Positions 128-38,856 of a stretch of 39,948 nt of DNA are shown here, in pieces. Made by a program: the position numbers and the translations under genes. Every line of letters starts with the position of its first letter. Position 1 is the stretch's first letter. The notes under the pieces are model-generated. The model searched no databases, was not told where the DNA came from, and worked only from the letters and a program-made list of their open reading frames with translations. Source of the stretch: Escherichia phage TM1; sequence record OM908436.1. One strand, 5' to 3'.

Positions 128-2492
128 TAATGCCTGACTCCTGCTTGTGCTTGTCCAGCTCTTTCTTCGTGCCTTTGTTGACTGTAGGCTGAAGGTTGAA
201 TGACCCTAAGAACATCAGGTTCAGACGAGTGGTATCCTTCTTGCGGTATTCCTGCCAGACCGGGAAACCATCAGGTGTTACCCAGTGTACCGGAAGGCAT
301 GGCTTCAGGATTTCACCAGTCTTCTTGTCCTTCACTTCAGCAGCCAGCAGCTTGGCAGCACCTTGAAGCCACTTCATCGCGTCAACCGCAGCAACTACGG
401 TCACACTCACAGCTTCCCAAATCATCTTAGCCATGAATCGAGACGCTTGGCTTGGCTCGGTGAACATAGCGCCAGACCCTGAGTCAATCGCTGGCATCAC
501 GATATCCTCGTAAACTTGGTCTGCGAATCCGTACTCTTTCGACCCGTATGCCAGAGTCATGACTGAACGCTTAGTGACCTTGCGTGACATACCATATGTC
601 AGCCACTGACGGGCCAGCTCTCGTGTCCCCAGCTTGATACGTTCGGTAATCTCACCAGTTTTCTTGTCCTCGTGAGTGACCATCTCGTTGTCAGTACCGT
701 TAATCAGCAGGACTTTAAGCTCCTCCTCAATGCGGTCAGACACGATTCGGTAGATGTCTTGGACCTTACCGGATGGCGTCAGGTTTACTGCATGTCCACC
801 GATGTGGTCACGAAGCATCGCGCTGAAGTGCTGAATCCCAGAGCAGGACCCATCGAACGCTACCGGTAGCGAGCAGGAGTACGACAGGCCGTGGTGCATT
901 ACGCCAGCATACTCGAAGCAGAACGCAAGGAAGCAGAACGGAGAGTCTAACTTGCCCCACCACTCAATGCTATCCATTGGTGCTTTAGCCGCAGTCATGA
1001 TGTTGTCGTGGTTGTCTTCAACCCACTTGATGCGCTCCTCGAAGGTGACTTTATCGACACCCGCACAGTTTGCACCGTGGACCTTCAGCCACTTGAAACC
1101 ATCAGCGCCAATAGGCTTGCCGACTGCCAGAGTAAGGAGACCTTTCTGCATGTCGTTGCCTTGAGGGTTGAACATCGGCACAGCGTAGACTCGACCGCGC
1201 CAGTCCATGTTGTACGGAAACCAGATGGCCTTGAACTGAGAGAACTTGTTCGCTTGGTTAACGATAAAGCTCAGTGACAATCTACGTGACTGCCGGGCCT
1301 TCTCTCGGCGGTAGATACCAGCAGCAGCCTTCTTCCATGCCTTGAGTTCTTCTTCAGTCTCACCCGCATAGTCCTCAGGCTTCAGTGGCTCCATCTGAGG
1401 GATATCATCAATAGGCGTGTTGTTCAACTTCTCGACCATGTTTACCACGTCCAGCACCTTCTTGTTCACTTTCCACGGTGTATTCTGGATGATATTCACA
1501 GCGTCATAGACTTCAGGCATGTACACGTCTTCGTAACGTGCTACCGCAGACTTAGACCCTAAGCGAATCAGTGGCAATGGTCTTCGACCTTTGGCCCAAT
1601 ACCCACCGCCTACGACACCAGTCCACGGCTTTGGTGGAACGACGCAAGGCTGATAGACTGGCGCAATACCCGCGAGGCTGAATCCGCGTTGTGCCATCTT
1701 CTTGACCCAGAAGTCTGACAGGTGGACCATCTCAACGTCAGCCGCCGCATTGCCAGCACCGTAACGCTTAAGCTCGACCAGTTGTGTAGACTGGATGACA
1801 ATCTCAAGCATCTTGATGCCAACGTGTACCGCTTCGGTCGGACTCCAAGTACCCCACGCATCTTCCAGCTGACCTTGCTCAAGCATGGAGGTCTCAACCG
1901 CTTGCATGTAGGCTTTCTTGTAGGATACCCCTGCTCGCTTGTTCAGGTTCTCAGCTATCGCCTTCTTGAAATGCTCCTTCTCCTGATCACGGATGCGACC
2001 GAAGCGGATTTCATCCTCAAGTGTGCGACCTATCGCTGAGGCCATCGGTGTAATCGGGATCCCTTCAGGCTTGACCAGCTTGGAGAGGATGACCTTCAGT
2101 ATGATAACCGCAGCAGACTCACATGAGATGCGCAGAGAGCGGTCCTTGACGGCCTTCTCTTCAGTGCTCAACATGGTGAACGCCACGCTAGGACGAGAGG
2201 TTGACAGCTTCCCGTCTGGCCCTTCATGCCACTCCTTGACGGCTTGCGCAATCTTAGGGACCAGAGTCTGCATCAAAGGCTTGGCGACCTGATTGTCTGC
2301 CAGTTCCCCGCGCTCAGTCTGGCGCTCAAGGTTCTTGATGAAACGTCGCTCGCCTTCAGTGTATGCCTCGTGCTCAAGCTGAAGCTGTTTGACTGCAAGG
2401 TCTTGCCCGTAGTGGTCAGCCAGCAGGTTAAACGGCTCAATGGCGTTCGACACATCAGAGAAGTCGTGTTTTTCAATAGAGATGACGCTCAT
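1..2492 (-). CDS. gp1: T7-type single-subunit DNA-directed RNA polymerase, N-terminal and central part (start codon 2490-2492; continues across the window edge into 39632-39948)
   Basis: Reverse translation from 2492 gives MSVISIEKHDFSDV..., matching the T7 RNAP N-terminus MNTINIAKNDFSDIELAAIPFNTLADHYG; frame is continuous with the C-terminal piece through the 127-bp overlap (about 893 aa in total). Confidence 0.9.
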   Translation of the reverse strand, partial: MSVISIEKHDFSDVSNAIEPFNLLADHYGQDLAVKQLQLEHEAYTEGERRFIKNLERQTERGELADNQVAKPLMQTLVPKIAQAVKEWHEGPDGKLSTSRPSVAFTMLSTEEKAVKDRSLRISCESAAVIILKVILSKLVKPEGIPITPMASAIGRTLEDEIRFGRIRDQEKEHFKKAIAENLNKRAGVSYKKAYMQAVETSMLEQGQLEDAWGTWSPTEAVHVGIKMLEIVIQSTQLVELKRYGAGNAAADVEMVHLSDFWVKKMAQRGFSLAGIAPVYQPCVVPPKPWTGVVGGGYWAKGRRPLPLIRLGSKSAVARYEDVYMPEVYDAVNIIQNTPWKVNKKVLDVVNMVEKLNNTPIDDIPQMEPLKPEDYAGETEEELKAWKKAAAGIYRREKARQSRRLSLSFIVNQANKFSQFKAIWFPYNMDWRGRVYAVPMFNPQGNDMQKGLLTLAVGKPIGADGFKWLKVHGANCAGVDKVTFEERIKWVEDNHDNIMTAAKAPMDSIEWWGKLDSPFCFLAFCFEYAGVMHHGLSYSCSLPVAFDGSCSGIQHFSAMLRDHIGGHAVNLTPSGKVQDIYRIVSDRIEEELKVLLINGTDNEMVTHEDKKTGEITERIKLGTRELARQWLTYGMSRKVTKRSVMTLAYGSKEYGFADQVYEDIVMPAIDSGSGAMFTEPSQASRFMAKMIWEAVSVTVVAAVDAMKWLQGAAKLLAAEVKDKKTGEILKPCLPVHWVTPDGFPVWQEYRKKDTTRLNLMFLGSFNLQPTVNKGTKKELDKHKQESGISPNFVHSQDGSHLRKTVVHTHRKYGVMSFAVIHDSFGTIPAD

Positions 2493-2561
2493 ACTTAAAG
2501 TCCTTGTTATTAGTCTTTCACTTAAAGTCTCTTTGGTCTTTCACTTGGAGTCTTAGACCTT

Positions 2562-2584
2562 GAGTCCTATAGTGATAGTTAAGT
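2562..2584 (-). promoter_or_regulatory. Phage-RNAP promoter-like sequence immediately upstream of the RNAP gene (ACTTAACTATCACTATA/GGACTC)
   Basis: Matches the phage promoter consensus at -13 to +2; initially transcribed region deviates (GGACTC instead of GGGAGA). Confidence 0.5.
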
Positions 2585-2589
2585 CATAA

Positions 2590-2982
2590 TTACTTGCATA
2601 TCAGAGGGGTAGCGTGAAGATGACTGAAGTCACCGTGAGTCGTGTGCTTGATGGTTGACCGTTGGTCTATCGCCTTCCAGCCTGAGACCAGAAGTTTACC
2701 ATCGTCAGTGATTGGTCGTCCCCCATACGCCAGACACATCAGTTCGGACTTATGGCCCTCGGCCTGGAGTCGTGCCTGAAGTACACGGTCTCGCTCCTGC
2801 TGTTGACGCTTAGTGTGTGATGAGTGGCGGTGTACATAAGCGCTCTTTCTCCCGGTCTTCTCCCAATAGTTGCGACCACGCGAATCCTTTCCAACATACT
2901 TCCACTCTACTCCGTTCTTATCAGTGAATTTGCGAAACGCTAGGGTTGAGTCCATTGCGTGTACCAGATTTGACATATTCAT
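2590..2982 (-). CDS. Early hypothetical protein (130 aa)
   Basis: ORF directly upstream of the RNAP gene in the early region; start overlaps the stop of the upstream ORF (ATGA); no recognisable motif. Confidence 0.5.
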   Translation of the reverse strand: MNMSNLVHAMDSTLAFRKFTDKNGVEWKYVGKDSRGRNYWEKTGRKSAYVHRHSSHTKRQQQERDRVLQARLQAEGHKSELMCLAYGGRPITDDGKLLVSGWKAIDQRSTIKHTTHGDFSHLHATPLICK

Positions 2983-3179
2983 TACAGTTTGCTCCCAAGA
3001 GTTGCTATATCCCAGACGTTCGCTAAATTACGCGCGAATCGCCCGTTAGGTTGGCGTACAGTCCAGCGGCCCAGACGTGCATAGTTGAATTTATAGACTT
3101 TACGTGCCTTGTTGATGTCTCTCATCAGCATGTAGGCGATAAGTCCATAGCCTATGGCTATCAATAGTTCGATACTCAT
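2982..3179 (-). CDS. Early small hydrophobic protein (65 aa), probable single transmembrane helix
   Basis: Hydrophobic N-terminus LLIAIGYGLIAYML; coupled to the downstream ORF. Confidence 0.4.
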   Translation of the reverse strand: MSIELLIAIGYGLIAYMLMRDINKARKVYKFNYARLGRWTVRQPNGRFARNLANVWDIATLGSKL

Positions 3180-3284
3180 AGTGATTTCCGTTTAATACAA
3201 TCGTATATCCCATAACCTATCATCCAGATAACTGGCGCTAGGCATACCAAATATCCCACACTCATAGTTAACTCCTATTAATGC

Positions 3285-3340
3285 AAGTGGTAATCTTTGA
3301 GGCCACCTATCAGTCGATGACCTCTCGTTTATCACTTAGC
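3285..3340 (-). promoter_or_regulatory. Conserved early intergenic RNA hairpin element, copy D (candidate RNase III processing site)
   Basis: Shares the AGGCCACC...GATGACCT core and flanks with copy C; the stem closes with G-U pairs only in the minus-strand transcript. Confidence 0.45.
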
Positions 3341-3354
3341 TAGGCCACGCATGG

Positions 3355-3702
3355 TTACACTTCCACCGATACAGTGGTCATCTTGCTTACAGTCAGCCCA
3401 CCAGCAAGCTCAACCGCATAGCGTATCGCCTCCTCTTTGGATTTGAAGTCCTTTCCTGCAAGGTGGTAAATATCGCCTGTTATTACCTTAGAAGGCCTGC
3501 GACTCACCGCAATAGCGTTTTCCATGGCAAGCTCACCACGGCTATACTGAGTAAGCCAGCGCTTCACCGAACTCGTTCCCACCCCGAACTTTTGGGCGGT
3601 TGCAGTCACCCTATCCATAACTCCCTCAGGCAGAGAGGTGTAGTAGTTAACAACGTTGAGTTTAAATGCTACCGAGAATACATTGCGAGTTTTAGCAGTC
3701 AT
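3355..3702 (-). CDS. Early hypothetical protein (115 aa) with a possible helix-turn-helix segment
   Basis: ORF in the early region; the segment ATAQKFGVGTSSVKRWL resembles an HTH; no T7 counterpart recalled. Confidence 0.5.
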   Translation of the reverse strand: MTAKTRNVFSVAFKLNVVNYYTSLPEGVMDRVTATAQKFGVGTSSVKRWLTQYSRGELAMENAIAVSRRPSKVITGDIYHLAGKDFKSKEEAIRYAVELAGGLTVSKMTTVSVEV

Positions 3703-3725
3703 TATTCTTTCCTTCTGTAGGTGTT

Positions 3726-3776
3726 AAGTGGTAATCACTCAGGCCACCATGTAGATGACCTGTAGTTTAACACTCA
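3726..3776 (-). promoter_or_regulatory. Conserved early intergenic RNA hairpin element, copy C (candidate RNase III site)
   Basis: Transcript AGGUCAUC-loop-GGUGGCCU gives an 8-bp stem with two G-U pairs; flanked by the conserved CTGTAGTTTAACACT block. Confidence 0.45.
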
Positions 3777-4059
3777 GTATCCACCTGTCAGCGTTATGGT
3801 CAAGCTATGGTGATTAGCCACGTAGCAAGCCCCGCGCTTCATCATCTCGTAGCAACCATCGTAGAACGCCTGTTCACTGCTATAAGTTATCTGGTACATG
3901 TTTACTTGTCCTCAGCGTGTAAGCTGTCATACATGCGCTTACGACCCTCATAGACCGCTTTCAGGTGGCGCATAGCCTCATAGTGGTTTAACCGCCCGGT
4001 CTTGACCATAATCCGGGCGTTGGTGACATGGTGCTGGCAGAGACCATAAGTTACCATCA

Positions 4060-4404
4060 CTAGCAGTCCTCCTCTTCGTCTGCCTCTTCAGCCTCAAACC
4101 ATACCACATCACGGCTATTAGACACGTCGTTATAAAGTGCCTCATAGATACGAGCTTGCAGTATACGCGTCACATCCTTGGTCTCAGGCATCAGCCCAGA
4201 GTCTTCGAACTCATGGTCAATACCATCAGCAGCCATCACCGTAAAAATCTCGTGGTAATAGTGCGGTACCTGACCATCTACTACCTCATGCAGCGCATCA
4301 TGATAATCATCGCCTTCAGCTATTTCGTCGCACTGAATACGCTCATTGAACAGCTCAACGGTTGCAGCCAGCAGCTCATAGTATGCGTTAGCGTTACGTT
4401 CCAT
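4060..4404 (-). CDS. ocr: Ocr-like anti-restriction DNA-mimic protein (T7 gp0.3 homolog)
   Basis: 114 aa, acidic; [50 protein letters not shown] aligns with T7 Ocr [50 protein letters not shown]; acidic C-terminal tail. Confidence 0.88.
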
Positions 4405-4433
4405 AGTTATATCCTCTCAAAGTTAAGTATGTG

Positions 4434-4485
4434 TTAGTGACTATCATTCAGGCCGCTAGAAGCTAACGACCTGTAGTTAATCACT
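4434..4485 (-). promoter_or_regulatory. Conserved early intergenic RNA hairpin element, copy A (candidate RNase III site)
   Basis: TTAGTGACTATCATTCAGGCC...GACCTGTAGTTAATCACT, same architecture as copy B. Confidence 0.45.
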
Positions 4486-4762
4486 AGTAGGCTACATCTT
4501 TAAGTGCATTCTTAAGCATGGTCTCTATGTGTGAATCCTTCACGTTAGCCATATATCCGCCTATCACTTGCACTTCTGCATTATTGCTGGCAATTATTTC
4601 CTGCGACTTTTTATGGCCCACTCCATGATAACAATCCCACATGAAGCGCTTGAACGTTAGACCATTCTCTTTGTAGCGCTCGGCTTCTTCCGCCACTCCA
4701 CGTAATAATCTTGATTCTAACTCCTTGCGGAAGGCGTCTGCTGTAGCTTTGTTCAGTCTCAT
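4484..4762 (-). CDS. First early gene, hypothetical protein (92 aa)
   Basis: ORF with Shine-Dalgarno TAAGGA 6 nt upstream of the ATG; first ORF downstream of the sigma70-like promoter and leader; no recognisable motif. Confidence 0.5.
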   Translation of the reverse strand: MRLNKATADAFRKELESRLLRGVAEEAERYKENGLTFKRFMWDCYHGVGHKKSQEIIASNNAEVQVIGGYMANVKDSHIETMLKNALKDVAY

Positions 4763-4779
4763 AATGAATCCTTAGGTTG

Positions 4780-4862
4780 TTAGTGACTATCAGTCAGGGC
4801 CTTCAGTCGCTCAAGTCAAGCCCGTCTCGCGGTAGACTCAAAGACCCTGTAGTTAATCACTG
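4780..4862 (-). promoter_or_regulatory. Conserved early leader RNA hairpin element, copy B (candidate RNase III site)
   Basis: Contains the TTAGTGACTATCA and CCTGTAGTTAATCACT flank blocks shared with copy A. Confidence 0.4.
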
Positions 4863-4884
4863 TCGGCGCACATTAAGAGTTTAT

Positions 4885-4962
4885 CCAGATTGTTAAAGAG
4901 CGTTCGCGTTGGCTGTCGTCGCCGTGCTATCCCGTTTCAGTGTTGGGACTCACCGTTGTTTC
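4885..4962 (-). promoter_or_regulatory. Leader segment resembling the T7 R0.3 RNase III site region
   Basis: Transcript GAAACAACGGTGAGTCCCAACACTGAAACGGGA...CGCTCTTTAACAATCTGG closely resembles, from memory, T7 GAAACGACAGTGAGTCACCACACTGAAAGGTGA...CGCTCTTTAACAATCTGG. Confidence 0.5.
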
Positions 4963-4977
4963 GTGTTGATGTGGTGC

Positions 4978-5007
4978 ATACTACTTTAAGTCTGTACATC
5001 TTGTCAA
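4978..5007 (-). promoter_or_regulatory. Host sigma70-type early promoter (T7 A3-like): -35 TTGACA, -10 TAGTAT
   Basis: Transcript-strand ACAAAACGCTTGACAAGATGTACAGACTTAAAGTAGTAT parallels T7 A3 ACAAAACGGTTGACAACATGAAGTAAACACGGTACGAT (from memory). Confidence 0.55.
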
Positions 5008-5284
5008 GCGTTTTGTTTAGCCTGTTAACCTAAACCGTGAGCTATAGCCCCTCAGTGGGCGACCCGTTGCCTCCTCTAGCTCTCCACCTCAGTGGTAGAC
5101 TTGGCGAGCTGGTCAGGCTCTCGTTAGGTTGTAGGACCTTTCCGACCTGCTGAAGTGGGAGCCTCCAGCGACCCTACTGCTTTCTGTCATCTGCCTGTTG
5201 TTCGTATGACTTATCAGGCTGTCTACTTAACCGGGATGACCCGGCGTCTTCACTATCCGGTGTTTGCCGTGTCGTGTTGACGGA

Positions 5285-5320
5285 AGCTATTAGGCCATAG
5301 TCTAGACCTATAGTCAATAT
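5285..5320 (-). promoter_or_regulatory. Possible second host-type early promoter (A1-like; -35 TTGACT, weak -10 CCTAAT)
   Basis: TTGACT followed by a 17-nt spacer and CCTAAT on the transcript strand; weak -10, so tentative. Confidence 0.3.
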
Positions 5321-5429
5321 GTAATTTGAAATAATATTGATTAAGCTATCGTCGGCCCCATAGTGACTAAGAGGATATAGTCTTTGACTAACATGTCTTA
5401 GACCTTAAGTCTATAGCCATTGTGTCTAT

Positions 5430-5780
5430 TAACTGTAGGTTTAGACTGTAGGTAGCGGCAGTACCGATGGTCGATGACTGTAGGTAGTTAGACTGTAGGT
5501 AGTGACTCAAGGTCTGATACAGATGGAGACTCAGAGGCAGACCCATAGTCCCTACCTATCGTCTCCACCTCCAGCCATAGCCGATACCTATCGTTGACCT
5601 GAAGTCTTGACCATCGGTCCAGCCTTATGATAGACTGGGGTAGGGCCTTTGGTCTGGACTTAAAGAGGGCCTATGGGGAGACTTGAGGTTCTTGAACTGT
5701 GAGATGTGGTCTCAAACTTTTGGTCCAAAACTCATCGAAGACTGTAGGTGGCAGCTACTGTAGGTCAAGGACCGTAGGTC
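5430..5780. repeat. Candidate genome termini / concatemer junction: two arrays of ACTGTAGGT-type short repeats flanking a roughly 240-bp segment that may be the collapsed direct terminal repeat
   Basis: ACTGTAGGT at about 5432, 5445, 5477, 5492 and again at 5741, 5757, 5771 (one ACCGTAGGT variant); no ORFs; sits between gene 19 and the early promoters, like the CCTAAAG repeat arrays beside the T7 terminal repeat. Confidence 0.45.
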
Positions 5781-5939
5781 AGGCGACACTAGGATAGACC
5801 AATAAGTAGGATGACCCTAAGTGAGCTTCTATTAAGGTGTTACCTAAAGTCCTTGACTACAGTAGCTAAGGTCAGTAGAGTAGCGTAAGCTATGAACTGA
5901 CCTTAGGTCTTCCGCTCATGAATCGTTACCATGATTGCG

Positions 5940-6098
5940 TTAATTACACTGAGACACCAGAGAACATACGAGAGTCTCGACCCACCCGACCCACTGACTT
6001 CCAGCAGTAACGCCAGCAGTAAGTAGAACAGCAGCAAGAAACCTGTATGTAGCTCGATTGGTCGCCAGAGCTTTAAGTACAGCTTTGGTCTTTGCCAT
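5940..6098 (-). CDS. Small hydrophobic protein (52 aa) at the gene 19.5 position
   Basis: ATG preceded by AGGAGG at about 8 nt; MAKTKAVLKALATNRATYRFLAAVLLTAGV...; below the ORF-track size cutoff, hand-translated. Confidence 0.4.
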   Translation of the reverse strand: MAKTKAVLKALATNRATYRFLAAVLLTAGVTAGSQWVGWVETLVCSLVSQCN

Positions 6099-6278
6099 AT
6101 GCTACATACCTCCTGTATCTATGGTCGGTGACTATCTGTATTGGAGGGATTATGATTAATATCACCCTCCTTCCATCGGTGCAAGCCTTAGGTAAGAACT
6201 CGGAGTCTGCCTCCTAAGGTCTTGCATAAAGTCTGCATATGTATATTCACTACAGTAATACTATAAGTAACCGGGGGT

Positions 6279-8605: not shown

Positions 8606-8667
8606 AGTTGCCCTCCCGGTTTATCAGATTTCACGTAGAGTCGCCTCCACTAGTTAGTGTTAACCAT

Positions 8668-8702
8668 AAAGGCCACTACATATAGTAATGACCTTGAGTC
8701 TA
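8668..8702 (-). promoter_or_regulatory. Conserved RNA hairpin between small terminase and spanin genes (candidate RNase III site, R18.5-like)
   Basis: CATAAAGGCCACT-N10-ATGACCTTGAGTCTA; transcript forms an 11-bp stem with two G-U pairs; two near-identical copies at about 31972 and 38797. Confidence 0.55.
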
Positions 8703-8706
8703 ACAC

Positions 8707-8970
8707 TTATTGAACGCCATACCCTGTGTCATTATCCTCAGTCGCTGAAAGCACCTTATCGTACTCTGCGTTCAGGGCCTCCATATCAGCCAGCGTCTTC
8801 TCGTCCACAGACACCTTGCTTAACACAAAGTTGTGGCGAGCAAGCAGCTTCTCAATGGCGTTGTAGAGCTGAGGTGAACGCTTAGAGTCATCCCGCAGGT
8901 CTTGCAGCATGAGTCGAGCACGTTCAGTATCTAGCATTAAGAGGAACTTCTCTAAGTCCATCTGCGTCAT
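8707..8970 (-). CDS. gp18: Terminase small subunit (T7 gp18-like)
   Basis: 87 aa, position between holin and Rz-like genes; size matches T7 gp18. Confidence 0.75.
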   Translation of the reverse strand: MTQMDLEKFLLMLDTERARLMLQDLRDDSKRSPQLYNAIEKLLARHNFVLSKVSVDEKTLADMEALNAEYDKVLSATEDNDTGYGVQ

Positions 8971-11273: not shown

Positions 11274-14200
11274 CCTTGATGTGGATGCCTTGCTCCTCAA
11301 ACGTTCCAAGCAACAGCTTCTGGGTAATTGGGTCGTTCGGAACCAGTTCACGGAACGTATTATACATCCCGGTCATGTAGTCACGCTCGTTGACGCGAGT
11401 ATCAGCCTTGAGGTAGCCAGCCAAGTTGTAAGCCGAAGCGCCAACGTTAGCAGCATATCCGAAAGCTGGAACCTGCTCCAAGAAGTTACCAACAACATTC
11501 ATAACAGGGTCACTTGTAGACGCACCATACGCGATGGCGCGTTCAGGCTTCTCTGTAGGCGAACGAGGTAGGATAGACGAACGTAGCATCTTAGTGTCCT
11601 CATACCCAGCGATGCCACCCAGAATGTTAGCTACCCCAAGTGGGCCACCCAGATGTGAACTACGGGACAGAGCCGCATAACCAATCATCGTCGGGTCAAG
11701 AGCTTGCTTGAGGTATTCACGGTCTCTGCCATCCTGCATAGCGTAAGCCTTGACGTGAGCCTGAGCCATGTAGTAGATACCAGCCAGACCCATAGACATC
11801 ACAGTGGACAGAGCAGCATCCATCGCTCGGTTGTTCTTCGTGGCGTTATAGAAGGTTCGCATGGTACGTCCATTGATGGACTTGATGACGAAGTTCTTAA
11901 ACTGAAGGACAGTCTTAGCGAGAGGGCCATAAGCCTTGGCGTCCATGTTTGACAGCTTGTGGGGCCGGAGTAACGTTTCGTCAGCGATGGTGTCACCCAT
12001 ACGCCACAGGTCCATAGCCCTTGGGTCCTGACTGAACGCCTTCTTATCCTTGATGGTGTACTTCCCGTCTGGACCACGAGTCACTGACTCACGGATTAAT
12101 GACTTAATGCCCTTCCACTGCTCGTCAGATATACCAGCGGTCTTCAGCCATCTGTCATCGAACTTACGCTTACTGCCAGTCAGACTATGCTCCACGATGT
12201 CAGACAGGAAGCCTTGACGTCCAGCATCTAACAGGTAGTTGGTCGTACCGTTGAGGACTTTAGTGAACGGAGAGCGTACTGCAAGTTCGCCAGTGTAATA
12301 CTTGGCAGAGCCTAAAGCCGTAGCCGCAGGTTTACTCAAGGCGCTGTAAGACCGAAGACGGTCAATGACATCCTGTTTAGACGGACGGATTGAGTCATCA
12401 AGCTCCTTACCGAAGATAACATTGTGCAGGTCCTTAATCTCTGAGGCTCCTACCTTCTTGTTACGGAAGGCTAGGTCACGGAATATCGGGACTCCATGAA
12501 GCATTGCACGAACGTTACCACGAGCCAGCATACCACCAATCTCCGTTAAGTTCTGAACACCCATGTAGGCATTCTTAGCGAAGAACGATAGGTCAGTCAT
12601 TGTTCGCATCACGGTAGCGAAGGCTGCATCGTCAGCACCATCACGTCGAGCACGACCAGTTAGAATCTTCAGGGTGTCACGCAAGGTAGATACTTCACCT
12701 TTCAACTTTCCGTCATCACCAGCCTTGTTCATCATGGTCTCAACCAAGTCCTTCATTTCTTTCGTTGTCTTGCCTGTACCAGCCATAATAGCAATGTCAC
12801 CATTAACTCGACGGTTGTATGCCGGGACAATCTTGTCCATGTCCCACTCACGCAGGTTGTTGACACTGAAGGTTTGACCATTAGGAAGAATTATTGACAT
12901 ATCGCTGTCGAACAGGTTACGAGCCTCAAGGAAGCTGTTGTTCTCCAGACCCACCAGACCGTTGATGTTCTCTTCCATTACGGATGAACGCTCGAACTGC
13001 TCGGTGTGAGAGATACCATAAGCCTTATCGTTGGCGTACTTATCGACCGCAGCCGCAAGTCCTTCTGGAGTCAACGTAGGGTCAGCCTCTAGGAGTGCCT
13101 CGTCCACACGTTTCTTGACCTCAGGTCGAGACGCATAGCTGGTCAACCATGACTTCTTGATGGCCTCCTGTAGTGCCTCTGGACTTCCAAGCTCCTTGAT
13201 GTACAGCTCCTTCATCTGGTTGCTATACACATGTGGGACGTAGGTTCCCTTGAATCGGCTACCCGGAAAGATAGACTGAGCGTCTGGACGACCAAACATC
13301 GCCGGGTTCTCCATCATCTCACGCTTGGCGTCAAACTGGTTCTTCAGCAGGTCATAGACTTTCAGTTCTCCCGGAGTCAGTTCAGCCTTCAGGTTCCCAC
13401 TTCCGTCTTCAATAGCCATAGACACACGCTGGTAGATGTCCTGACGGAATGCGCCAGAGTCTCGCCAGAATGCTGTCTGGAAGTATGGGTCCTTGAGAGC
13501 CTCAGTAACCGCGTCGTCAATGTCGTTGTAGAACCGATGGTCAACAGCACGAAGTCTCTCGAATACGTCTGACGCAGTGGTCCCGATTTTACCTGAGGCC
13601 CCTGACTGCATACCTGTTGGTGAACGCACTAAGTCAGCAGCGACTCCGCGAATCTCAGGGTTCTCAGACCGAAGCAGCTTCAGGCCAATCTCAGTTAGCC
13701 CACCAAGGTTCACACCAGCAGCGGCACGTTCAGGCTCAATCACTTCGTCAAAGACCTTACGTGTCTTAGGGTTCAGAGGGTTTTCACCAATCAGTATTGA
13801 ACCGTCTTCTAATCGTACACTACCCGGCTCATTCGGAACGTCAGCGAACTTAACACCTTGATGACTAAAGGTCTGCTCACCTTCCTGAATAGGGAGACGA
13901 GACAGGTCCTGACCATCAACGTTACGGGCTGTCTCACGAGCTTCCAGACGTGTAGCTGGGCCAGCGAACTCGTTAGTGTTGCGACCTAAGGCTCTGCCTA
14001 GGCCATCAGCGATAGCAGTCATGCCACCACCGAAGAGAGCACCGCCAAGGATAGCTTCAGCCACATGAGCATCACCACCAGCCACTGAGGTACGGGCCAT
14101 CTCGGACACACCAGACAGTGCTCCAGATTGAGCAGCCACGGTGAACATCTTGTTGACCAGCTTACCGCCTTTACCAACCTGTCCAGCTATAGGAACGTAG

Positions 14201-18480: not shown

Positions 18481-18935
18481 ACGTCCTCCTTAGAGATAGT
18501 GAATAACTGAAAACGCTCACCAGTTACCGGGCTGATAGTCCAATCATCATGGAACTTAGCCCCAAGCAACTTCAAGAATTTAATGTGAGACTTATTGCCT
18601 GACCACACGTAGTTCCAGATGGTCCCGTATTGGTCTAACATTAAGTCCCTGTACTCAGAGATACGCTTTATGAACTCTCGCTTCTCTTTAGGTCTCAGCT
18701 TGTGGACCAGACCAGAAGTCAAGAACCATACGTTATCCCCTTGGTTTCCACCATAGGCAAACACTTCGCCTACACCGTTCGTTAAAACCACAGATGACGG
18801 AGATAGGTGCTTAAGCAGTCTTTCAGAGATACCAACGGTTGACCCATAGTTTGCTTTGCACTCATTAACATCATCTGCTGAAAGATGCCACAGAAAGTAG
18901 TGGACATCCGGTTCCGTAGCCTTGCGAATATACAT
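18465..18935 (-). CDS. Protein at the gene 13 position (putative internal virion / assembly protein)
   Basis: 156 aa ORF between the phi13-like promoter and gp14; assignment by position only. Confidence 0.5.
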   Translation of the reverse strand: MYIRKATEPDVHYFLWHLSADDVNECKANYGSTVGISERLLKHLSPSSVVLTNGVGEVFAYGGNQGDNVWFLTSGLVHKLRPKEKREFIKRISEYRDLMLDQYGTIWNYVWSGNKSHIKFLKLLGAKFHDDWTISPVTGERFQLFTISKEDVCVNP

Positions 18936-31947: not shown

Positions 31948-31971
31948 GGTTAATCCTCCGTTTAGTCTAAT

Positions 31972-32008
31972 CATAAAGGCCACTCGCTGTGAATGACCTT
32001 GAGTCTAG
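31972..32008 (-). promoter_or_regulatory. Conserved RNA hairpin upstream of the DNA polymerase gene (candidate RNase III site, R4.7-like)
   Basis: CATAAAGGCCACT-N8-ATGACCTTGAGTCTA; compensatory changes relative to the copies at 8668 and 38797 preserve the stem. Confidence 0.55.
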
Positions 32009-32010
32009 AC

Positions 32011-32174
32011 CTAGAAGTCTGTACGCAAGAAGTGATACATGAACTTCCGGTTAGCTTTCTTCCATGCCTCGGAGTTGAACCGCTGGTCTCCCAGAATGTT
32101 CGACAGGCAGGTTGCTTCGTCGCTCCACCATTTGTACATGAACCGATGGTAGCGAGCTTTAAGTTTCTTTAACA

Positions 32175-36448: not shown

Positions 36449-36878
36449 GACATTTACCTTTATGTAGGTCGAACAGCTCCTGATAGAAGGCTGCTTTGTT
36501 TAGGTCCTTCTCCATAGTAGCCAGCTCTGACTTCTTGCCAGCCCGGAGTCGATACTTCAGGACGTTACCCATGCAGAACCCACGGAACTCGCTGACAGTC
36601 ATTGACCGAGCGATAATCTCAATGGATTCCACACCGTCAAAGACCTGATAGTGAGATGGCTTACGGACGCTATCTTCCTGACCTATGGTTGTTGGCTCGG
36701 ACTGCGCCTGCTTGGTAATACTTAAGGAACTAATGGAGTGAGTGAGTGGTTCAGATAAACGGGGCCACTTAACAACAGCCACATGCTCATTCTTAACCAC
36801 TATCACCTTGCCACAGGAGCGTCCAGTGTGGGCTTCAACTGGTCCAACATAGTTAACTGTATCCCCCACCTTAACCAT
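36441..36878 (-). CDS. Protein at the gene 1.7 position (145 aa)
   Basis: Position only; T7 gp1.7 is a nucleotide kinase but I cannot confirm similarity. Confidence 0.45.
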   Translation of the reverse strand: MVKVGDTVNYVGPVEAHTGRSCGKVIVVKNEHVAVVKWPRLSEPLTHSISSLSITKQAQSEPTTIGQEDSVRKPSHYQVFDGVESIEIIARSMTVSEFRGFCMGNVLKYRLRAGKKSELATMEKDLNKAAFYQELFDLHKGKCHA

Positions 36879-38756: not shown

Positions 38757-38796
38757 GTGGTTAAATCTCCAGTAGTTTACGTTATGTTAGGGTTAA

Positions 38797-38837
38797 TCAT
38801 GAAGGCCACGACTTTTAGTCATGACCTTGAGTCTAAT
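38797..38837 (-). promoter_or_regulatory. Conserved RNA hairpin at +5 to +40 of the phi1.1-like transcript (candidate RNase III site, R1.1-like)
   Basis: CATGAAGGCCACG-N10-ATGACCTTGAGTCTA; 11-bp stem with two G-U pairs on the transcript strand. Confidence 0.55.
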
Positions 38838-38856
38838 CCTATAGTGATAGTTTAGA
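38834..38856 (-). promoter_or_regulatory. Phage-RNAP promoter (phi1.1-like)
   Basis: TCTAAACTATCACTATA/GGATTA; overlaps the stop of the 157-aa ORF. Confidence 0.65.

Follow-up and report, generated by a model that had tools for sequence, protein, structure and literature searches.

Intergenic hairpins of Escherichia phage TM1 as probable RNase III processing sites of the T7-phage type

The early region of Escherichia phage TM1 (OM908436.1) is read from the minus strand of the 39,948-nt stretch of DNA analyzed here (the window) and carries a set of short, related elements between its genes. The question raised by this locus is whether these elements act as RNA and, if so, in what role. The window represents a Kayfunavirus-like (K1F/SH3-type) phage of the Studiervirinae, within the T7 group. 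It showed approximately 91% identity to Citrobacter phage SH3 and Kayfunavirus genomes, and one relative (L005), being only ~95% identical to the window, is a different phage. In T7 and T3, host RNase III divides the long early transcript into individual messages, and RNase III processing in the T7 group has stood in textbooks since the 1970s–1980s. The copies found in TM1 are new members of the class known from T7/T3. From this homology, we infer that they are very probably cleaved by RNase III in the manner of the T7 processing sites.

Four related elements (copies D, C, A, and B) had been predicted between the early genes, and all four were present, both as a repeat family and as folds. The repeat search grouped 3305-3336, 3743-3774, 4454-4485, and 4830-4861 into a single family, and further repeat pairs joined 3285-3307 with 3726-3748 and 4432-4452 with 4778-4798. 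The sequence CCTGTAGTTAATCACT occurred five times at up to three mismatches (0.31 expected), and the pattern AGGCC-N(8-38)-GACCT occurred eight times (2.27 expected). Copies A–D are thus confirmed as real and beyond chance. The AGGCC...GACCT core ascribed to the whole family is not literally present in copy B, which is missing from the pattern matches because its core is of the R0.3 type and reads AGGGCC...GACCCT. Likewise, the flank blocks said to be shared are exact in copies A and B, but in copies C and D the second block differs at two to three positions and the first is replaced by a variant particular to these copies, AAGTGGTAATC. The family had also been described as one of early-region elements. 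The four early copies agree with this description, but three more members lie elsewhere in the window and are named after their T7 equivalents in Table 1.

Table 1. Hairpin copies and associated features of the window, with covariance-model scores and folding statistics.
Feature	Position	Strand	Score or match	Fold (kcal/mol)	z, minus strand	z, plus strand
Copy B	4776..4865	-	50.2 bits, E 1.2e-9 (covariance model); aligns to T7 850-909	-32.4	-2.7	-1.1
Copy A	4430..4489	-	69.8 bits (covariance model)	-26.0	-4.6	-0.3
Copy C	3721..3778	-	65.3 bits (covariance model)	-22.8	-2.6	+0.25
Copy D	3280..3340	-	59.9 bits (covariance model)	-22.4	-3.2	-1.5
R1.1-equivalent hairpin	38783..38844	-	60.0 bits (covariance model)		-3.8	
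R4.7-equivalent hairpin	31957..32016	-	61.4 bits (covariance model)			
R18.5-equivalent hairpin	8650..8711	-	63.0 bits (covariance model)		-3.3	
Sigma-70 promoter TTGACA-18-TAGTAT	4978..5007	-	10/12 consensus matches; aligns with A3 promoters of T7, T3, and K1F			
Fifth segment, conserved 5' leader of A3-like host promoter transcript	4885..4962	-	55/78 bases identical to T7 752-829			
BoxA-like motif GCTCTTTAACA	4891..4901	-	perfect match to consensus GYTCTTTAANA; ~25-35 nt upstream of copy B			

All seven copies are located between minus-strand ORFs, downstream of a promoter and 20–30 nt before the next start codon. Copy B, the first RNase III-type hairpin past the leader, is followed by a 92-aa gene (4762-4484, phrog_9817). 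Copy A separates this gene, whose TAG stop (4486-4484) sits within the lower stem of the hairpin, from an ocr-like gene 0.3 (4404-4060; phrog_2568, E 7e-54). Copy C follows a 41-aa ORF and precedes a 115-aa ORF (3702-3355), and downstream of copy D come, in order, a 29-aa ORF, gp0.6-like and gp0.38-like genes, and lastly gene 1. The R1.1-equivalent hairpin directly follows a phage promoter (38837-38853), one of 10 in the window, all on the minus strand, and stands upstream of the gene 1.1/1.2/ligase block. The R4.7-equivalent hairpin lies between a primase/helicase-sized ORF (33918-32218) and a DNA-polymerase-sized ORF (31983-29776), the gene identities here being assigned solely by size and position; in T3, R4.7 is similarly placed directly before gene 5. 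The R18.5-equivalent hairpin is found between an 87-aa ORF and a 149-aa ORF in the positions of genes 18 and 18.5, the same two genes that flank R18.5 in T3.

The RNA folding analysis produced a strong fold only on the transcribed strand. Every copy consists of a lower stem of 9–10 pairs and an upper stem of 9–11 pairs, with 18–19 pairs in the consensus, and the coaxial lower and upper stems reach the approximately two helical turns of T7-group sites. An asymmetric internal loop, with two to three unpaired bases on either side of an isolated C-G pair, was present in all seven window copies and in the consensus. The original prediction held that G-U pairs close the core stem on the minus strand alone, and this proved correct, as one pair of the conserved core AGGUC/GGCCU is U·G, which the opposite strand would turn into a C·A mismatch. 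All matches of the covariance model fell on the gene strand (7/7 in the window and 172/172 in 48 relatives). The plus-strand reading was rejected on its weak folds (z -1.5 to +0.25), model scores of no more than 17 bits, and A·C mismatches replacing G·U.

Stable, GC-containing hairpins in intergenic positions could also be read as intrinsic terminators or as attenuators that separate the early genes. None of the copies is followed by a U-run, however, and an internal loop with a conserved core is typical of RNase III sites rather than terminators. A terminator scan of 2400-5800 returned no site (2.2 expected in shuffles). A terminator role has next to no probability on this evidence and was rejected.

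Covariation among related phages was strong, as the original prediction had anticipated. A model-free MAFFT alignment was prepared from 33 non-redundant sites of RNA-polymerase-anchored relatives, and RNAalifold recovered the same structure from it independently. Paired cells amounted to 97.3% compared with 24–46% when the partners were slid, and cells changed on both sides numbered 74 compared with 4–10 in the slid controls. The covariation score was 0.506 against no more than 0.10, a value that none of 500 shuffles reached, and 11 of the 18 pairs were compensatory. When the window copies were aligned with T7 R0.5, R1, and R0.3, the core AGG...G.CCT was invariant and 12 of 19 pairs were compensatory among the 10 sequences. 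Compensatory substitution on the transcribed strand, as in T7-group sites, was thus found.

These data also bear on the idea that the elements are DNA-level repeats, serving as recombination joints, early-gene cassette boundaries, or sites for DNA-binding proteins, with the RNA fold being incidental. Among 25 relatives, 31% of BLAST alignment endpoints fell inside the elements, compared with 12.5% expected by length, and one relative (L003) lacks the C cassette and has a D-type element immediately after the 52-aa gene. However, endpoints were also concentrated at ordinary gene boundaries, which makes the enrichment nonspecific, and it would be a secondary consequence at most. The compensatory changes keep pairing, not sequence. 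Furthermore, G·U cells numbered 102 and A·C cells only 10, and the complementary strand retained 81.8% pairing compared with 97.3%, which indicates selection on one RNA strand rather than on duplex or cruciform DNA. A purely DNA-level role is therefore highly improbable.

To determine which RNA class the hairpins belong to, a covariance model was rebuilt from the seven window copies only (model R2) because the first model had T7 sequences among its seeds and would have been circular; it was run on the complete T3 genome and on T7 and phiYeO3-12. In T7, the matches were 850-905, 1425-1479, 3098-3153, 5845-5898, 13851-13907, 18499-18574, and 36814-36871 (28–60 bits), which we take to be the positions of R0.3, R0.5, R1, R1.1, R4.7, R6.5, and R18.5. 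In T3 (AJ318471), the model matched R0.3, R0.5, R1, R1.1, R4.7, R6.5, and R18.5, that is, 7 of the 10 stem-loops annotated "RNase III recognition site", and nothing else in the genome. In phiYeO3-12 (AJ251805), it matched the annotated putative sites R0.3, R0.45, R1, R1.1 and, weakly, R1.3, so that all five early features were recovered. The ends of the matches agreed with the annotation of both phages to a few bases. T3 and phiYeO3-12 belong to another genus, Teetrevirus, and their neighboring early genes differ from those of TM1 in carrying SAM hydrolase instead of ocr and in having the 0.7 kinase. The RNA-level function that had been proposed is accordingly supported by covariation, by the strand-specific fold, and by the recovery of annotated RNase III sites with a window-only model.

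The hairpins might nevertheless work uncleaved, as 3' stabilizers, as insulators against mis-folding between cistrons, or by binding RNase III without being cut. Structure and covariation demonstrate a selected fold rather than cutting, and some motifs permit RNase III binding yet inhibit cleavage (PMC1540722). Copy B in particular is a long variant with an unusual apex, a branched three-way junction of ~30 nt that T7 R0.3 does not have; the reactivity of this copy is less certain because the branched apex has no counterpart in characterized T7/T3 sites. The branched apex is kept in 10 relatives, with compensatory changes at 9 of 28 pairs. Set against a role without cleavage, the copies are homologous to cleaved T7 sites, core included. 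Copy C and T7 R1 (compared at T7 3095-3155) have the same 9-bp upper stem, CAGGUCAUC/GGUGGCCUG, and the window-only model finds annotated RNase III sites and nothing else. We consider a role without cleavage improbable and regard processing by RNase III as the favored reading.

The likeness to T7 sites extends to the two stems with their asymmetric internal loop, to the intergenic location on the transcribed strand, and to the core (A/C)AGGUC...GGCCU(U/G), including its U·G pair, which the window copies share with T7 RNase III sites. Only a few pairs set copies A and D apart from T7 sites, a comparison that, like the upper stem shared by copy C and the cleaved T7 R1, touches indirectly on the inhibitory (antideterminant) base pairs of the proximal and distal boxes. 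The layout is not identical. Before gene 1, the window phage has four sites and T7 has three; the family has seven detected members in the window, compared with 10 sites in T7, and the covariance model search of the window gave no R1.3-, R3.8-, R6.5-, or R13-type match. The early copies were predicted to mirror T7 R0.3, R0.5, and R1. The sites are indeed homologous, but the parallel with R1 is loose because the position immediately before gene 1 is taken in TM1 by a phage promoter and not by a copy. A degenerate R1-type site before gene 1 (2492-2600; starting with GACTCAAGGTC, after the phage promoter) was considered and rejected, as it gave no model match and its fold was not significant (z -1.0).

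Rfam 15 returned no match at the gathering score for the whole window, and at E values up to 10 the region 2400-6200 gave a single match, a chance snoRNA. There appears to be no Rfam model for T7-group RNase III sites, and a curated external model was consequently unavailable. Such sites are not annotated in the GenBank records of K1F, PE3-1, and EcoDS1, and full-text literature searches returned no paper on RNase III sites in Kayfunaviruses. The present sites add little new biology, and their value lies mainly in annotation. The covariance model recovers sites cleanly and could serve to annotate transcript boundaries across Studiervirinae; it could also help in picking natural insulator or processing elements for phage engineering.

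The fifth segment (Table 1) had been likened to the T7 R0.3 site region. The resemblance to T7 is real, but at T7 752-829 the A3 transcript begins, ahead of the R0.3 hairpin, and it is copy B that aligns with that hairpin. The fifth segment alone showed no significant fold (z +0.33) and was rejected as an RNase III hairpin. By alignment, copy B is the true counterpart of T7 R0.3. The promoter just upstream of the segment is, on the same kind of comparison, homologous to promoter A3 of T7/T3, which is carried in the T3 annotation (AJ318471), and it serves as one of the start points of the early transcript bearing copies B, A, C, and D.

The course of processing can be proposed from these features. 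Host RNA polymerase would initiate at the A-type promoters of the left genome end (~5300-4980, minus strand), and the early genes would be transcribed as a single long RNA. Each element would fold co-transcriptionally into two stems, a lower one of ~9 bp and an upper one of 9–11 bp, separated by the asymmetric loop with its isolated C-G pair; the two stems would stack to about two helical turns, a quasi-continuous helix that host RNase III could bind. A single-strand cut is expected on the 3' side of the internal loop, which is proposed to be the reason why only one strand is cut. Internal loops are known to limit cleavage to one bond, leaving a protective 3' hairpin (PMC1540722). The upstream message would retain the hairpin as a 3' cap against 3'-to-5' exonucleases, and the downstream message would begin 20–30 nt before its start codon. 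The predicted products are the 92-aa gene; ocr with the 52-aa and 41-aa ORFs; the 115-aa gene; and the 29-aa ORF with gp0.6, gp0.38, gene 1, and what follows. The three further copies may play the same role on the middle and late RNAs that the phage polymerase synthesizes.

Dunn and Studier reportedly placed T7 cleavages at coordinates 1468 and 5887 in 1983, and these two positions share one alignment column. By alignment with T7 R0.5 and R1.1, cuts are predicted between U4792 and G4791 (copy B), U4446 and G4445 (copy A), U3737 and G3736 (copy C), and A3296 and G3295 (copy D), the exact bonds depending on these two T7 coordinates. The gene 0.7 kinase of T7 is a stimulator of RNase III. This gene appears to be absent from the window phage, and the efficiency of processing may therefore differ from that in T7.

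The BoxA-like motif of the leader is unique in the window. It was present in 46 of 58 loci, almost always single and on the gene strand. The window 12-mer GCTCTTTAACAA matches the E. coli rrn boxA. The consensus GYTCTTTAANA is a published one (PMC5725501). It is conceivable, though rather doubtful, that besides processing, the hairpins serve as portable homology blocks for the swap, gain, and loss of early cassettes in Kayfunaviruses, each accessory gene traveling with its own site, and that the BoxA leader mimics the rrn leader and recruits the host Nus complex. The E. coli rrn leader and the window have in common a BoxA shortly upstream of an RNase III-type helix on a transcript of the host polymerase. 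In E. coli rrn, however, this helix pairs sequences that flank 16S or 23S RNA at a distance of kilobases, and RNase III cuts both of its strands, whereas the hairpins of the window are local and a cut is predicted in one strand only.

A repeat search of the window, in which the gene strand is the minus strand, regrouped the four related early elements of the original prediction as one family (copies B, A, C and D), with repeat group D1 as the main family and groups D6 and D7 as its other arm. The motif counts were above chance: CCTGTAGTTAATCACT with at most three mismatches occurred five times (0.31 expected), and AGGCC-N(8-38)-GACCT occurred eight times (2.27 expected). The flank blocks first quoted for all copies proved exact in A and B only; C and D have a common left block (D6) distinct from that of A and B. 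The AGGCC...GACCT core also does not extend to copy B, which has AGGGCC...GACCCT and is consequently missing from the motif list.

Folded as minus-strand RNA, copies B, A, C and D reached -32.4, -26.0, -22.8 and -22.4 kcal/mol (z = -2.7, -4.6, -2.6 and -3.2), and the plus-strand folds (z = -1.1, -0.3, +0.25 and -1.5) were the same as those of shuffled sequences or nearly so. In every copy, a lower stem of approximately 9 bp and an upper stem of 9-11 bp are separated by an asymmetric internal loop that holds an isolated C-G pair. In the conserved core AGGUC/GGCCU, a U·G pair turns into a C·A mismatch on the opposite strand, in agreement with the original observation on the core stem. The genes upstream of copies A and C have their stop codons inside the lower stems (TAG 4484-4486 in copy A and TGA 3774-3776 in copy C, both on the minus strand), where terminating ribosomes would compete with hairpin formation or RNase III access.

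Three of the extra AGGCC...GACCT matches also folded well. A covariance model scan of the window found exactly seven copies, all on the minus strand, scoring 50-70 bits (at most 17 bits on the reverse strand). The genes beside the three further copies were named solely from size and order; T3 has R1.1, R4.7 and R18.5 at matching positions. No family member was found in the whole-window scan at the equivalents of R1.3, R3.8, R6.5 and R13 of T7/T3. A model of this kind does pick up R6.5 in T7 and T3, so an R6.5-type site is either absent from this phage or has diverged.

Features of the hairpin family, leader and early region
Feature	Position	Strand	Remarks
Copy D	3285-3336	-	
Copy C	3726-3774	-	
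Copy A	4432-4485	-	
Copy B	4778-4861	-	
Further copy	38783-38844	-	directly after phage promoter; upstream of gene 1.1/1.2/ligase block
Further copy	31957-32016	-	between primase/helicase-sized ORF and DNA-polymerase-sized ORF
Further copy	8650-8711	-	between ORFs at gene 18 and gene 18.5 positions
A3-like promoter	5007-4978	-	TTGACA-18-TAGTAT
BoxA core	4901-4891	-	GCTCTTTAACA
115-aa early ORF	3355-3702	-	between copies C and D; weak phrog_151 match (E 2.6e-4)
29-aa ORF	within 2590-3265	-	
65-aa ORF	within 2590-3265	-	gp0.6-like, phrog_2385
130-aa ORF	within 2590-3265	-	gp0.38-like, phrog_7066
Phage promoter	2565-2581	-	TAACTATCACTATAGGA, perfect consensus; directly upstream of gene 1

On direct reading, the T7 regions R0.5 (1425-1484), R1 (3095-3155) and R0.3 (840-908) resemble the window copies, and copy C shares its entire upper stem (CAGGUCAUC/GGUGGCCUG) with T7 R1. 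In an alignment of the window copies and T7 sites, ten sequences in all, the AGG...G.CCT core is invariant and 12 of 19 pairs show compensatory changes. Because the first covariance model had T7 seeds, a second was built from the seven window copies alone and run unfiltered on complete T7, complete T3 and the first 8 kb of phiYeO3-12 and of K1F. Seven of the ten stem-loops that the depositors of T3 (AJ318471) annotate as "RNase III recognition site" were matched, namely R0.3, R0.5, R1, R1.1, R4.7, R6.5 and R18.5, with ends only a few bases from those annotated, and complete T3 gave no match elsewhere; the missed sites (R1.3, R3.8 and R13) are all shorter and atypical. The likeness to RNase III sites put forward originally for T7 is thereby strengthened. 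The annotated putative R0.3, R0.45, R1 and R1.1 of phiYeO3-12 were also matched, R1.3 weakly, and K1F gave four matches (705, 1028, 1764 and 5564), none annotated. The T7 matches lie at 850-905, 1425-1479, 3098-3153, 5845-5898, 13851-13907, 18499-18574 and 36814-36871, which we take to enclose the cleavage coordinates of R0.3, R0.5, R1, R1.1, R4.7, R6.5 and R18.5, respectively (Dunn and Studier, 1983). The T7 records examined do not list R0.3-R18.5 cleavage-site features.

Copy B (4865-4776) is the true counterpart of T7 R0.3 (850-909). It exceeds the versions in K1F, T7 and T3 by approximately 30 nt. This first site has a long form of 89-91 nt, common to ten relatives (loci L013, L015-L019, L021, L023, L025 and L045), and a short form of approximately 57-67 nt in K1F, T7 and T3. 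The consensus fold of the long form has a three-way-junction apex, and 9 of its 28 pairs show compensatory changes. Copy B is thus a structural variant inside the hairpin family.

The comparison set for covariation was anchored on the N-terminal 400 residues of RNA polymerase, independently of the hairpins, and comprised 49 loci with 48-99% protein identity. These contained 172 model matches, all on the gene strand. In the model-fitted alignment, 95.0% of cells were paired, compared to 24-46% when partners were slid by 1-3 columns; changes on both sides numbered 380 cells (31-52 in the slid controls), and the covariation score was 0.545 (at most 0.107). Since such an alignment is biased toward the model, 33 non-redundant sites (<85% identical) were realigned with MAFFT alone. 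RNAalifold recovered the same structure independently, with 11 of 18 pairs compensatory. In this alignment, 97.3% of cells were paired (24-46% slid), double changes affected 74 cells (4-10), and the score reached 0.506 (at most 0.10). None of 500 shuffles equaled the observed paired cells, double-change cells, further pair types or score. There were 102 G·U cells and 10 A·C cells, so on the complement 81.8% of cells would remain paired; action of the hairpins at the DNA level does not fit this strand asymmetry. The conserved secondary structure claimed at the outset is thus borne out by covariation.

In T7, transcription of the early region by the host polymerase produces a precursor of approximately 7,000 nt. 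RNase III cleaves it co-transcriptionally at five sites, and at R1.1 the cut falls in one phosphodiester (PMC4858673). Because of internal loops, only one bond is cut, and the 3' hairpin that is left shields upstream RNA from 3'-to-5' exonucleases (PMC1540722). By homology, we infer that the hairpins of the window would be cut by RNase III as in T7. The 92-aa gene, ocr with two small ORFs, the 115-aa gene, and the block into gene 1 would then each have a message of their own. Transcription termination by the hairpins is excluded, as they lack U-tracts and a terminator scan of 2400-5800 returned no sites. A role as RNA without cleavage is unlikely, given cores identical to those of cleaved T7 sites. 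The cuts in T7 R0.5 and R1.1 are presumably at 1468 and 5887, both between UAU and GAU in one alignment column; from this shared column, homology predicts cuts at the bonds U4792-G4791, U4446-G4445, U3737-G3736 and A3296-G3295.

RNase III sites of this class are textbook knowledge. The copies in the window, a Kayfunavirus-like genome, and in the inspected Kayfunavirus records are previously unannotated members of this class, and Rfam appears to contain no model for them.

The early region 2493-4970 was also observed to be mosaic among relatives (loci L003-L025, L045 and L052). BLAST alignment endpoints fell inside the four hairpins in 31% of cases (12.5% expected from length), and L003 has no C cassette, a D-type hairpin coming immediately after the 52-aa gene. 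As endpoints are also concentrated at ordinary gene boundaries, the hairpins may simply lie at the edges of cassettes and not be the cause of exchanges.

The segment 4885-4962, originally likened to the T7 R0.3 region, instead aligns to T7 752-829 (55 of 78 bases identical; alignment with T7, T3 and K1F), the first ~80 nt of the promoter A3 transcript, and shows no significant fold (z = +0.33). Its invariant GCTCTTTAACAATCTGG includes a core that perfectly matches GYTCTTTAANA, the functional BoxA consensus of gamma-proteobacteria (PMC5725501). The motif occurs once in the window and in 46 of 58 loci, including T7, T3, K1F and phiYeO3-12, almost always singly and on the gene strand, with approximately 35 nt between it and the first hairpin; in the window it stands approximately 25-35 nt upstream of copy B. 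The layout is similar to that of an rrn leader.

Region 2400-6000 matched 409 phage records, with Citrobacter phage SH3 and several Kayfunavirus genomes at the top (approximately 90-92% identity). Gene 1 (RNA polymerase) starts at 2492 and its reading frame leaves the window at its beginning, indicating a circularly permuted assembly; the left genome end lies near 5704. The window has ten phage promoters, all on the minus strand (0.14 by chance). The one upstream of gene 1 stands where T7 has R1, and it implies that the phage polymerase is able to transcribe its own gene. Since the EcoDS1 record annotates its counterpart, it is a known Kayfunavirus feature. The interval from promoter to start codon (2492-2565, minus strand) opens with GACTCAAGGTC, which corresponds to the 5' half of an RNase III-type core; short direct repeats (GTCTTTCACTT) are also present. 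The interval gave no covariance model match and no significant fold (z = -1.0), and might be the remains of an R1-type site, among other possibilities.

The stretch from the last early hairpin to gene 1 (2590-3265, minus strand) has no evident homologue of the gene 0.7 protein kinase. The T7 0.7 kinase phosphorylates and stimulates RNase III, so this phage may depend on unstimulated RNase III. The 115-aa ORF is missing in several relatives; its weak match is to the N-terminal region of a transposase family, and the product may be a small DNA-binding protein.
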